Positions 1,817 through 54,740 of a stretch of 64,000 bases of DNA are shown one piece after another (the stretch's first letter is position 1; each line of letters begins with the position of its first letter). The notes under the pieces are model-generated. The model made no database searches, was not told where the DNA came from, and saw nothing but the letters and a program-made list of their open reading frames with translations. A program made the position numbers and the translations under genes. Source of the DNA: a virus (Duplodnaviria; Caudoviricetes); the IMG/VR virus record IMGVR_UViG_3300031992_004562, positions 1 to 64,000 of that record; one strand, 5' to 3'.

Positions 1817-2956
1817 ATGAGTAATATGAAAACATCACACATCAATCATTTAGTACTTTATGCAAAGAATTTTTACCGTCATACTGGTAATGTTATTAAG
1901 GATTGTCAACGATTCATGCAAATGGATGGGCATCCTTGGAAAAAGATTAATACTCCAGAGAAAGTTTGGAATGTAATGCGTAAAGATTTTTTGGAGTGGG
2001 CAGAATCTATTCCAAAAGATAATTATGACTCTCATCTTGTAAATGATGCAGATAGTGTTGTTGCATGGGCAAATGGTGTAGAAGCACATATTTATCATAT
2101 TCTTATTGTATATGAAATTTATATTCCAATGACAGGTGCGCAACTTGGATATCCTAAATATGATCAATATCATATGCCTCAATTTGGTGTTCGTGAAAAT
2201 CTATTTGATCCTAATGGAACGTTTGAGGATTGGAATAAAGCTGCAAAAGATTTTCTTGATACATCTCTTGAAGATCGTTGTGATGAATATATGAATCAAC
2301 TTATGGACAAATATCCATTTGAAGATTTGGCTAAAATCTATAATGCTCTTCATGATGAAGTTACAGAAGATCAACTTAAAGATGAGCTTTGGAATCTTTA
2401 TACTGAGTTCATGGATGAAAATACAGTAGGTGATGGTACTGTTACACTTGGAAATTTTACAAAATATTCTGAACACTTTATCCTAGATATTCGTACAAAA
2501 GCAAGTGCCCCTGGTTTTGATGTACATGCAATATTTACAAAGGCAACATATACTGTTCCTGGTGAATGCACAAAGGAAAACCTGGAAAAATTATATGATA
2601 TGGCAATTCATGATGAACAATTTATTTGGGATCGTATTGAAATTTCCAAAAAGATCAATGAACTTTTCCCGGATAATTATGATTATACATTTAATGAAAA
2701 CCAATTGGATTATGGTTGGATTCAGGATATAATTGTAGAACATAAAAATAATATGGTTAACAATGAACATGGCGGATTTGATTATTTGCTCAAAAATAAA
2801 CATACGTGTGGTGGTTCTGGATATTTTGAGTTGAATACTGAAATTAAAGATGATCATATAAAACTTACAGTAATTTTCCATGCAATATTTGCATGTACTG
2901 CAATGGAACGTAAACTTTGGAATCCAGGAGTATGCATAGATGACAAAAAATATTAA
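1817..2956 (+). CDS. hypothetical early protein
   Basis: 379-aa TAG-free ORF. Confidence 0.8.
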   Translation: MSNMKTSHINHLVLYAKNFYRHTGNVIKDCQRFMQMDGHPWKKINTPEKVWNVMRKDFLEWAESIPKDNYDSHLVNDADSVVAWANGVEAHIYHILIVYEIYIPMTGAQLGYPKYDQYHMPQFGVRENLFDPNGTFEDWNKAAKDFLDTSLEDRCDEYMNQLMDKYPFEDLAKIYNALHDEVTEDQLKDELWNLYTEFMDENTVGDGTVTLGNFTKYSEHFILDIRTKASAPGFDVHAIFTKATYTVPGECTKENLEKLYDMAIHDEQFIWDRIEISKKINELFPDNYDYTFNENQLDYGWIQDIIVEHKNNMVNNEHGGFDYLLKNKHTCGGSGYFELNTEIKDDHIKLTVIFHAIFACTAMERKLWNPGVCIDDKKY

Positions 2957-16202: not shown

Positions 16203-16274
16203 AATCGTCTTTCAATAGTTTTATTATTTATTGTATAAATAAGTTAACTGTAAGTTTTAATAAATATATTGAAT

Positions 16275-16997
16275 ATGAAATTATATAATTTACATAAAAT
16301 ATTATTTGAAAATAATTCTGGTGAAGAGTTTTATTTTAAAGATGAATGGATTCCAACTGATAAAGATTGGGAAACAATGATTATGAATATGAATAATCAT
16401 AGTAATCTTGATAATATCTTTAGAAAAACATCAACATTTAATGTAGATAAAATGGTTAGATGCTATCTTGTTGCTAAAGTTTTAGGATGGCCAAAATTGG
16501 AAAGATATCATGAAACTATGCGAAGAAGACTTAAAGATGCCGGAATATTTTATGATGAATTTGAAATAATAGATAATCAATTTATAGATCTTCCAGAAGT
16601 TTGGAAAGAATTAATTCTTGATTTAGAATAGTATGACAAACTTGGAGGGGTTGCATTAAGACATCAAGATATGGGAGAATTATGTGATGATAATGTTTTA
16701 TTTAATGCTTTTAAATATATAGATAAACATATTAACACTATATAGTTTTCTAAAATCTCATTAGATCGTGGGGATTTTCATCCAAATCAAAGAATAATCA
16801 AAATTAATTTTAGAAATGGGTCAATTGCATATATTAAAGTTGTAAGATGGAGTGCAAATGATCATTCTTTAAAAACCCGCGATTATTTTGATAATAATAT
16901 TAAAAAATCTAGATTTTCAACATTATTTCAAATATATTTAAATAGATATATTAATGAAGTAATAATTGATCCAACATGGACACCTGAATATTTATGA
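16275..16997 (+). CDS. hypothetical late protein (TAG-recoded, 240 aa)
   Basis: Open through 2 TAGs to TGA 16995-16997, which overlaps the next ATG. Confidence 0.75.
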
Positions 16998-17761
16998 AAT
17001 TAAATAAACAAATATTAGAAGCTATTAATAGAGGCATATAGTTGGCACTCGATGATTATGAAGATATAGAAACTAGTAATTCTATATCTCATAATAATGA
17101 TGTCATAAATAGTGATGATGTAATTCAAACAGAAATAGATTTTTGGGATTAGTGGGTTGATTTAGGCCTTCCTTCTGGTACATTATGGGCAAAATCTAAT
17201 ATTGGTGCAGATTGCGATGACTATGAGGAAAGCTGGTATGGAGAACATTTTGCATGGGGTGAAACTGAACCAAAAGAAAAATATGATTGGGAAACATATA
17301 AATTTGGAGAAGCAACATAGCTAACAAAATATTGTTATGATACTAAATACAGTGCAAATTATATTATTCCACGTACAGATGATTTAAATGAATTACAACC
17401 AAAAGATGATGTAGTATCAGTATTATTGAAACATCATTCACATATACCTACAAAGGAATAGATGATAGAATTATTAAATTATACATCGCAAACAGAAATA
17501 TTCAACTATAATAACATAGATGGTTTACATGGAATTATATTTACAGGCAAAAATAAAAAATCAATTTTTATGCCAATGGCCGGATCTATGTCGTCGTCAG
17601 TCAAAGTTTCAATGAATGCAAGATATTGGACATCTACACTATCAAAAGAAACTCCTATGGATGCATATTATTTAGATTGGGGACGTGGCTATCAAACCGG
17701 TTAGTTATTACATGATTATAGATGTTATGGTTTTTCAATTAGACCAGTTTATAATAGATAA
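16994..17761 (+). CDS. CLec-fold (VDLGLPSGTLWA, DUF1566/FISUMP-like) protein with shared leader (TAG-recoded, 255 aa)
   Basis: WVDLGLPSGTLWAKSNIGA...FAWGET...IPTKEQMIEL...YWTST...GFSIRPV. Confidence 0.85.
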
Positions 17762-41047: not shown

Positions 41048-41989
41048 TCATTCTATATAAATTGGTCTTATTTTACCAGTTACTGCTGGAATTGATTCAT
41101 TATTCCAAACAATATATGAATTACATTTAACATTAAAAATAGAAGACATTTTTATTTTTGCTAAATATAAATATATTTTATCTTTAAGTTGATTGTTCTT
41201 AGGATTTTCTCTATAAAGTTCAGATGTCTAATATAAAGCAAGGTCTTCATATGGGAACCATATAAAATTAAGTGGGTCTTTTTTAGAAACTAATAAATAA
41301 CCAAGATCTGGCATATATTCATCAAGTTTAAGATGATATTGTTTTGTATCTGTGAATAATTCAAGAAATTGAAACATTGTTGGCGTTCTATAATGTTTAT
41401 CAACATTATATGCTGCATCATCTTCTAATTCTAGTTTAAAACTATTCTTAGATTTATCTTTAAACTATTTAATATAGGTGTTTTTGAGCTTTTCTGTTTT
41501 ATCCCCTCCAGCATCTGTTCTATTAGGCATAGTATCACCCCAAACATAATATGAACCATTTTCTGCATTAAATTGAATTCTATTAATAGTAAATACATAA
41601 TCCATCTTTTCAAGATTTTCAGTGCACCATAAAGTGCCAGATGGCAAATTAAGATCAACGTATTCTCTATAAAAAACATTTTTTAATTTTAGATAATCCA
41701 TTAATATATCAACTTCAACTTTAGATAATGGAAATCTTTCTAATAGGTTCTCTTTAAATAATTTTAGATTATCTTTATATATAATTAATGAATAATAAAA
41801 TTCTAATATAGCATCTTCGTGAAGAATTTTTGGAAAAATAATATGTTTGCAGAATTGAAGTTTTTCTTCTTCTCCTGTATCAATTATATCTTGTTTTTGA
41901 TTATCCTATTCATCATTAAAATCAAAATCATCTAATGCTAAACTAACACCTTTTCCTATTGAATCTATTATGTTTTTTGTTGATTTCAT
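41048..41989 (-). CDS. CLec-fold (VDLNLPSGTLWC) protein with shared leader (TAG-recoded, 313 aa)
   Basis: MKSTKNIIDSIGKGVSLALDDF...YVDLNLPSGTLWC...YVWGD...GKIRPI. Confidence 0.8.
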
Positions 41990-53290: not shown

Positions 53291-53860
53291 ATGAATAATA
53301 AACATTTATACAATAAAATTATAAATGCTATAAATGAAAGTGTCTAGAATGCATTAAATGAATATAACAAATATGAAAATTCTGATCATCATCGTGGTGG
53401 CAATATTCATGATTTAAAATTTCTTGCATAGGTACTAACTAATAAATATGGTTATAAAGCATATCCTGTATCATCTACACTTGGAAAACCATATTAGTTA
53501 ATTTTAAGAAGAGAAAGTGGAGTAAGAAAAAATGTTTATGTTCAACAACGAAAAAAGGGAACAACTTCAGGAAATATTGCATTAAGACTTAAAAAATATG
53601 GTGAAACATTATCATTATTAGACAATCCAGAAATTAATGAAATTTGTTTGATATGCCCGCCTGTAATGAATTATGATCCAAGAGGTGAAGTAGTTGATAA
53701 TACTAAAGCTTGTTTTTTTGAAAAAGATTATTTAAAAGATAAAGTTGAACATGGGGAAATTCCAATAACAAAAACACGAGATGGTGAAATGTTAATGCTT
53801 TCAGAAAAATGGATAAAAGAAAATGCAAAACAAATTATTTCATATAAATATATACGATAA
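53291..53860 (+). CDS. hypothetical late protein with INES/LNE leader (TAG-recoded, 189 aa)
   Basis: MNNKHLYNKIINAINESVQNALNEY..., in frame with 53648..53860. Confidence 0.75.
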
Positions 53861-53888
53861 AGAGAGTTTAAAAACTCTCTTTTTATTT

Positions 53889-54740
53889 TTATAAATTTAT
53901 TACTGGACGAACGCTAAAACCAATATAACGATTGTTAGTGAATACACGGATATTGTCTGAATAGAAATGCAAGTACCAAGCGTAATTGGGAACGCCTAAA
54001 TAAAGACTTGAAGACCACAAGTTACAGCCAGAACCAATGCCGTAGATATCAGAATCATTATGATAACCAGCTGCAGGAATAAACAATTGATTTCCATTCT
54101 TTCCTTTAAATATCCTGCCATTTAATCCTTGAATTCCTCCATCAACTTTTAGATTATGCTTTATTTTATTAGGATTATAATTATTAACCCAATAACTATG
54201 AGTATAATTTATTAATTCTATATACTGTTCTTCAGTTGGAATATGAAATTTAAAATTATGTAATTTTTTATTCTAGTAAGCAGCATCATCTTCAGGCAGT
54301 AATTCTGTTAAATTATCAGTAAATCCCCAAGTTTTTGTTATTTGATTATATCCCTTTTGAGGATTATTACAATATTTTGTTAAACAATCTTTTTCAGATA
54401 AATCTGTATAGTGTTCTGCATATTTATATGTAGACCAACTGAATTCTGGTTTATTTGGTTTCAATTCGCCCCATGCATAATATCCACCATACCAATCTTC
54501 GGCTTTAGACAACTAATTCTAATTAACTCCTAAATTATATTTGCACCATAAAGTGCCTGAAGGCAAACCTAAATCAACAACTTCTTTTATTAAATCATAT
54601 TTCTATTTAATAACATCTTCTGCATTAATGACATCATTATGTTGAGATAATGAACTAATTGGTTCATTATCTTCAAAATCATCAAGTGCAAGTTTAATGC
54701 CTCTATTTACAGCTTCTAATATCTGTTTATAATTTTTCAT
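53889..54740 (-). CDS. CLec-fold protein with shared leader; putative DGR target (TAG-recoded, 283 aa)
   Basis: MKNYKQILEAVNRGIKLALDDF...VVDLGLPSGTLWCKYNLG...YAWGE...FIPAAG...LWSSSL...GFSVRPV. Confidence 0.85.
53901..54074 (-). other. putative DGR variable region (VR)
   Basis: 58 codons with no Lys/Glu/Gln and 15 C-ending codons in an AT-rich genome; variable positions are NNY. Confidence 0.65.

Follow-up and report, generated by a model that had tools for sequence, protein, structure and literature searches.

A leader-tagged lectin-fold protein of a TAG-recoded phage ends in a hypervariable tip that carries DGR footprints

The gene P0001, in a 64,000-nucleotide stretch of DNA from a giant gut phage (the window), closes with about 50 codons whose composition differs sharply from everything upstream, and the question it raises is whether a DGR wrote these codons and, if so, whether it is still doing so. 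The original prediction, made from the letters of the window, held that the gene encodes a protein with a C-terminal CLec fold that is the remote target of a DGR whose RT and template lie elsewhere in the genome. The window comprises the first 64 kb of a 111,625-bp IMG/VR record (G000; 27% G+C) to which CheckV assigns a completeness of 22%. This value implies a phage genome of ~0.5 Mb, and since the record covers only about 22% of it, DGR machinery may sit in the unsampled part.

Under translation table 11, the interval holding P0001 breaks into four short ORFs on the minus strand, and with TAG read as sense (Gln) it forms a single ORF of 283 codons interrupted by none of its four in-frame TAGs (Table 1). 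The ORF is genuine only under this code, which is indicated by three observations: many long ORFs of the window open only when TAG is sense, aligned orthologs carry CAA (Gln) opposite the TAG positions of P0001, and the sole tRNA of the 111-kb record (73556-73629, beyond the window) has the anticodon CTA and is an amber suppressor. TAG recoding with a suppressor tRNA, a G+C content of 27% and an inferred size near 500 kb fit a Lak-like megaphage, a class defined here by its traits (TAG-recoded, about 0.5 Mb, about 26% G+C). No relative of the phage was found in the GenBank phage collection. In a 491-kb ENA relative (L157:1-4806), the family B DNA polymerase is apparently split, with intein-splicing domain matches between the pieces.

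Table 1. Coordinates of the features discussed (positions in the window unless another record is named).
Feature	Coordinates	Strand	Remarks
CDS P0001, 283-aa leader-tagged lectin-fold protein	53889..54740	-	stop included
N-terminal leader, codons 1-45	54606..54740	-	first ~26 residues nearly invariant in family
In-frame TAG, codon 46	54603..54605	-	
In-frame TAG, codon 74	54519..54521	-	
In-frame TAG, codon 76	54513..54515	-	
In-frame TAG, codon 156	54273..54275	-	
FISUMP/DUF1566-type C-type-lectin-fold domain (predicted), residues 48-283	53892..54599	-	profiles and AF2
Variable region, codons 227-276	53913..54062	-	NNY, C3-rich, A-poor, fixed scaffold
Hairpin, 10-bp stem	53859..53882	.	-11.1 kcal/mol, z -4.1
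Full-length paralog	16994..17761	+	43% identity, no codon signature
Leader-sharing relative	41048..41989	-	ends ...KIRPIYIE, no codon signature
Leader-bearing loci, window	16269-17761, 41048-41989		
Leader-bearing loci, 111-kb record	66260-69883, 77815-78606, 82410-84127		
DGR locus of G014 (L324)	353570-358597		coordinates in G014

Downstream of the leader, residues 48-283 match the Lcl_C profile (PF07603; E 0.0036, 18 bits against a cut-off of 34.9) and, of the FISUMP profiles considered (TIGR02145 and PF09603), TIGR02145 (E 2e-4, 21.9 bits against a cut-off of 41.65), in both cases below threshold; a real DGR target (L327) and the translation of a real template likewise fall below the cut-off. 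HMMER returned 14,954 relatives of these residues, the best of which are long multi-repeat proteins. An AF2 model built from 63 sequences gave a pLDDT of 88.4 for the lectin domain and low confidence for the leader, including a low-confidence helix at leader residues 4-24; it was used in place of a model from only 18 close sequences, which reached a pLDDT of 35. The top VIA-align matches of the 63-sequence model are all C-type-lectin or FGE-type folds (Z 5-7.7), among them the C-terminal domains of Bd2740 (Z 7.7) and of Legionella Lcl (8q4e, Z 7.4) and the DGR variable proteins TvpA (2y3c, 6.7), Mtd (1yu0, 6.5) and TaqVP (5vf4, 6.1), where a Z below 8 denotes a shared fold and nothing beyond. 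TvpA, Mtd, TaqVP and the Lcl domain share the C-type-lectin fold with the P0001 model at Z 6.1-7.4, values in the fold-only range, over 116-154 residues and with sequence identities of 10-13%. Foldseek with the AF2 model gave no significant match and a profile search of PDB sequences gave none. The profile matches and the model support a CLec-fold (DUF1566/FISUMP, CLec2-type) domain at the C-terminus, bearing out this part of the original prediction.

Orthologs of P0001 are 59-73% identical to it, and the matching clusters number more than 7600 at 90% identity. The record itself holds five full-length family genes (53889-, 16994+, 68358+, 69086+ and 77815-; 37-43% identity). The leader is found on at least nine other genes of the record and is common to genes with other C-terminal domains; at least four further genes share only the N-terminal ~45 residues with P0001. 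BLASTP aligns the minus-strand gene at 41048 with P0001 residues 1-183 at 27% identity, most clearly in the leader. This ~45-aa leader (…ILEAVNRGIQLALDDFED…) heads both lectin-fold proteins and DUF285/BspA-like repeat proteins and is a portable N-terminal module. A second leader (MK.DNKKALYESIMTS.AKEVKK…) heads lectin-fold genes of a related record, G004, whose tips bear the codon signature described below.

The leader does not resemble a signal peptide. In relatives, family members stand in tandem next to genes for the portal and a gp13-like neck protein; two ENA relatives (L303:1136-3643 and L299:2330-6846) carry three tandem paralogs directly upstream of a T4-type portal gene, near a gp13-like neck gene and preceded by a TnsA-like endonuclease ORF. 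This portal and neck neighborhood only suggests an association with the virion, and it would fit a shared virion-docking module carrying exchangeable binding domains. The earlier proposal of packaging in the head and delivery to the host found no support.

The last 58 codons of P0001 before its terminal INL include 15 that end in C, compared with a mean of 3.4 (sd 2.5) in 2727 58-codon ORF windows of the record, and none that is AAA, GAA or CAA. The fraction of A falls from 0.41 to 0.22 and that of G+C rises from 0.27 to 0.39. Only one ORF supplies windows with more C-ending codons than the P0001 tip, and it is antisense: the record's highest count is in ORF 1850-2527 (-), which lies opposite 1817-2956 (+) and is most likely a shadow of G-rich third positions on the sense strand rather than a gene. 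Among the real genes of the 111-kb record, the P0001 tip is the strongest outlier in C-ending codons. The abrupt change of composition was thus correctly described at the outset, as was its absence from the genes at 16994 and 41048, whose tips have C3 values of 0.07 and 0.02 and show no shift.

When 48 family genes from related IMG/VR loci were split by the C3 of their tips, 15 bore the signature and 33 did not, in keeping with the expanded family of members with and without it that had been foreseen. In the 15 signature-bearing genes, third positions of the tip are A.17, C.19, G.09 and T.55, versus A.38, C.06, G.09 and T.47 outside it. TAC makes up 34% of the TA-prefixed codons of signature tips (about 35% of Tyr) and 4% elsewhere, and Arg is encoded by CGN in 44 of 53 cases in the tip and in 5 of 44 outside it. 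The 33 other paralogs have no C3 shift; they use CGN for 34 of 101 Arg codons, which may be an older, fading trace. The shift in synonymous usage is confined to the tip of signature-bearing members.

Alignments of 18-121 relatives show that the first ~225 residues are well conserved and that the last ~50 are hypervariable on a fixed scaffold (AAGY..(variable)..LWSSSL.L..P..A..L.F.S..I......RY.GFSIRPVINL), with about 27 hypervariable positions. Among 121 representatives, 94% of the residues in the 27 most variable columns belong to the NNY-coded set, and K, E, Q, M and W together account for 5.8% of residues in hypervariable columns versus 25.7% in variable columns elsewhere in the protein. In 21 tips of the same length, the codons of the 24 columns that hold 6-11 amino acids are 90.5% NNY, and whether the third base is C or T depends on the column: the variance is 0.068, compared with 0.012 after shuffling, a value that 0 of 2000 shuffles reached; for example, C fills the third position in 79-80% of codons at two columns and in 0% at another two. 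A column-specific third base is what AAC and AAT codons of a template would leave, as an indirect mark. It could also have come about by descent, because the compared tips are kin and the synonymous sites of the family are not saturated, so that the pattern may be inherited.

A search of short proteins with a profile built from 13 tips brought up P0505, which is the template repeat (TR) of a real DGR called as an ORF. This 117-aa gene (L329:739-1092; ENA ERZ27234646 k141_187597) is flanked on one side by a 183-aa ORF and on the other by an RT that has IGNLTSQ and YVDD, and its translation forms a gapless alignment of 61 residues with the P0001 tip. At the 20 AAY codons of this template the family has an entropy of 3.09 bits, compared with 1.13 at the other 41 (Mann-Whitney p 9e-10), and the entropy rises with the number of adenines at codon positions 1-2 of the template (Spearman 0.81). 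Sliding the labels by 1-3 residues reduces the entropy difference to 0-0.8 from the observed 1.96. The agreement between AAY codons and hypervariable positions could also reflect structural constraints on a common binding surface. The L329 template cannot be that of P0001, since it lies on a bacterial-type contig of 61% G+C and has no DNA-level similarity to the gene. P0505 has a Pfam hit to PF26707 (DUF8237), as do many tip fragments, and profiles of this tip family evidently match translated templates. Hypervariability on a fixed scaffold, NNY codons, CGY Arg codons and the match to AAY template codons all give the tip the footprints of a DGR, which the original prediction had read from a single gene.

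In several respects P0001 resembles the CLec2-type DGR variable proteins of category 'd' of Wu et al. 2018, for example Legionella LdtA (PMC5758913): the variable region (VR) is C-terminal, matches to DUF1566 and Fib_succ_major are weak and mixed, the protein ends in ...G.SVRP(V), and the variable positions are NNY. It differs from them in having a phage-specific leader instead of a lipoprotein signal, in belonging to a family of 5-15 dispersed paralogs per genome and in having no RT, Avd or TR within reach.

Parallels also come from huge phages. A more distant, TAG-recoded megaphage (G014, IMGVR_UViG_3300045988_166570; 553,716 bp, 100% complete) has a full DGR with a 117-nt template, a 676-aa RT carrying IGNLTSQ and a convergent 310-aa target with a DUF1566-like end. 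The RT is unusually long, having a ~270-aa C-terminal extension and four in-frame TAGs, and a 131-aa ORF may be Avd, judging by position and size rather than by a Pfam match. Cassettes in the order target, Avd, TR, RT, with Lcl_C-type targets, were found in other gut jumbo phages at L327/L328 (29% G+C), L331 and L332; L326 has the same order but a G+C of 46.5% and a portal of the P22 type, and may be a prophage. In the cassettes checked (G014, L327 and L328), the changes from TR to VR fall at adenines, in G014 at 24 of the 25 differences. The jumbo-phage DGRs (G014/L323-L324, L327/L328, L331 and L332) are alike in coming from AT-rich huge phages and in having Lcl_C-type targets of ~310-320 aa, and their variable regions are C3-rich with CGY Arg codons in an AT-rich genome, as in P0001. 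They differ from P0001 in that adenine changes are visible and the target sits beside the RT cassette, as it does in all five real jumbo-phage DGRs, four times directly upstream of Avd-TR-RT and in G014 convergently, just downstream of the RT; for P0001 no cassette was found. The P0001 family is itself absent from G014.

From these footprints, we infer that the tip was written by a DGR and is now an orphan variable region in a lineage that has lost the cassette, a reading to which we give about an even chance. The protein would be a modular binder that joins a short conserved leader to a DUF1566/FISUMP (CLec2) lectin domain, the last ~50 codons of which would form the ligand-binding tip. An AAC/AAT-rich template would have been reverse-transcribed with errors at adenines and copied over the 3' end of the gene, leaving about 27 positions with NNY codons among scaffold codons that are fixed and poor in adenine. 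RT, Avd and template, which stand beside no family member in the lineage, would most likely have been lost, and the orphan tip would since have changed by ordinary substitution and by allele exchange under diversifying selection.

Alternatively, a DGR in the ~78% of the genome that is unseen could still be rewriting P0001 and its signature-bearing paralogs, as the original prediction proposed. All of the tip footprints (NNY codons, column-specific third base, CGY Arg, AAY match) are as expected for such an active remote target, and G014, a related TAG-recoded phage, has a working DGR whose target is of the DUF1566 type. Cellular DGRs are known to have remote targets, but in phages nearly every known target is located no more than 50 kb from the RT (PMC5758913), and no member of the P0001 family adjoins a cassette. 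Given the evidence that follows, we consider an active remote target unlikely, and the specific arrangement it would call for, in which one DGR of a ~0.5-Mb genome keeps rewriting dispersed leader-tagged lectins, several per genome, that are separated from the RT and from one another by more than 50-100 kb, is doubtful as well.

Neither an RT nor a template repeat, the two elements by which a remote DGR was to be recognized, turned up in the 111-kb record or in related fragments amounting to about 2.4 genome-equivalents. Searches with PF00078, BPP-1 Brt and the G014 RT, which detected the G014 RT as a positive control, covered G000 (22% complete), G003 (76%), G004 (41%), G005 (24%) and G009 (53%) together with small records; beyond the 111-kb record, about 1 Mb from five related fragments was covered. 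G000, G003, G004, G005 and G009 all carry signature-bearing genes, and with random, independent coverage the chance of missing a shared cassette in every one of them is about 4%. An RT motif scan and tblastn over 778 kb of sequence were empty, and at ~25 loci inspected with 10-kb flanks no RT adjoined a signature-bearing gene. In addition, none of the best 120 of 5006 RT homologues lies on the family-carrying contigs of 491 kb, 275 kb and 254 kb, no close relative of the G014 RT turned up elsewhere in IMG/VR, and the accounts of Lak phages consulted here mention no RT. The weight of this negative evidence from large contigs is lessened by signs that DGR cassettes assemble poorly and often go missing from long contigs: the cluster of the G014 RT has 361 members, none of them on a contig longer than 6.2 kb.

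A template was sought as well. BLAST, an adenine-tolerant scan and a six-frame search of G000, G003 and G004 revealed no non-coding copy of the tip, the tips of these records matching only coding paralogs in their own records. Pattern scans of IMG/VR for a template repeat were negative: the template-shaped pattern W-S-S-S-L-N-x-x-N-P-N-N-A had no match, the exact 21-mer given in the original prediction for the 3' end had none outside its own record, and a 15-mer scaffold pattern was unspecific (119 mostly random matches). At the DNA level, IMG/VR contains 18 copies of the conserved 3' end TTCGYCCAGTAWTAAATTTA, each of them closing a family gene. A scan of bacterial genomes gave only weak matches to Nitrospirota lectin domains; because the peptides used came from upstream of the tip, it carries no information on a template in the host. 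The paralog L029_4385 was considered as a coding template and rejected, since it has Asn at only five tip positions and is Asn-rich throughout. With neither RT nor template in the fragment or its relatives, P0001 is probably a stranded target.

Close alleles bear on the same choice. A DGR at work should leave variation restricted to A positions, as had been predicted, and the alleles compared have an ordinary spectrum instead. In one ortholog group (eight DNA sequences, six alleles), variable sites of the tip are distributed over the three codon positions as 18/14/19 and those of the rest of the gene as 43/10/80, so that 19 of 57 third positions vary in the tip (0.33) and 80 of 225 in the rest (0.36). 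Sites whose variants do not include A make up 37% of variable sites in the tip and 32% in the rest, with T/C the largest class, among alleles (P0007-P0010, P0124 and P0134) that come from different samples and not from one population. One pair seems at first to favor a DGR that is still active: with codons 14-28 set aside, P0009 and P0010 have 4 differences over about 600 nt, whereas their tips disagree at 32 of 171 nt. However, 12 of the 57 third positions of the tip are among these differences, mostly as T/C, which is impossible from one shared AAY template, and import of a divergent allele fits better than recopying of such a template. Tip alleles share blocks in mosaic fashion, and identical proteins or VR alleles recur in different samples, which also speaks against a tip under active rewriting. 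Inside 90% clusters, the variability of the tip does not exceed that of the rest, in a comparison that is biased by the clustering itself.

Over longer distances the tips have been randomized: those of more distant orthologs are 22-49% identical, with identity at the synonymous sites of the conserved part still at 75-86%, and signature-bearing members combine the shortest branches in the conserved part with saturated tips. This suggests that diversification went on well after the family had expanded, and the same pattern would also fit diversification that continues today, a point against an orphan tip. Taken with the close alleles, the evidence leans against ongoing rewriting. What stands of the predicted remote target are the footprints in the tip; the RT, the template and adenine-restricted variation among close alleles were not seen.

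A third reading does without a DGR altogether. A lectin binding surface under diversifying selection, with alleles exchanged between strains and paralogs, could be rich in Tyr, Asn, Asp, Ser and Gly and would be NNY-coded for that reason, and a recombination-linked GC bias or some local effect could supply the C-ending codons. The ordinary substitution spectrum and third-position diversity of the close alleles, their block-wise mosaic structure and the failure to find RT or TR in the lineage records searched are all as expected under this reading, and G-ending codons also increase among the purine-ending codons. Nevertheless, it leaves unexplained the switch of conserved Arg codons from AGA to CGT or CGC in the tip only, the roughly 9-fold rise of TAC over TAT and the column-specific third base beneath 6-11 amino acids. 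Moreover, the 33 paralogs without a C3 shift have the same fold and binding surface, and chance or convergence would have to account for the one-for-one match to AAY codons of a real template. The synonymous-codon evidence makes a tip driven purely by selection less likely, and we judge it improbable that no DGR was ever involved.

DGR homing needs a template nearly identical to its target, which here would have to include the AT-rich 3' end of P0001. That a DGR carried by the bacterial host or by a co-infecting phage rewrites the tip in trans is very improbable, as no near-identical template was found in IMG/VR and the sole template found with the same scaffold is that of 61% G+C, unalignable at the DNA level, even though gut jumbo phages and bacteria commonly carry DGRs with Lcl_C-type targets and avd-TR-brt of BPP-1 act in trans from a plasmid, according to work cited in PMC5758913.

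An orphan variable region would be invisible to current surveys, which detect targets only beside an RT (PMC8144416); because they need an adjacent RT, orphan and remote variable regions go uncounted. The P0001 family indicates that an orphan may be recognized from the gene alone, by hypervariability at specific positions, by NNY codons whose third base depends on the column, and by Arg codons free of adenine within an AT-rich genome. The mechanism of DGRs is known, and what is added here is the family, its leader-tagged modular build and its occurrence in Lak-like megaphages: more than 7600 clusters of modular lectin-fold proteins, which are candidates for host-glycan recognition. If the DGR has been lost, the family would record the persistence and drift of a diversified repertoire after that loss. 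If it is still present, phage DGRs would serve many distant targets, and P0001 and its paralogs would be the first phage case with truly remote, multi-copy targets, a repertoire of variable binders for a megaphage.

Finally, the hairpin noted downstream of the tip exists, but it does not look like a conserved DGR element: family members followed by another paralog lack it, and members at the end of an array are followed by unrelated hairpins. In the window it lies between two convergent genes and has T-runs on both sides, and from its sequence it reads as a bidirectional intrinsic terminator rather than a DGR target element.
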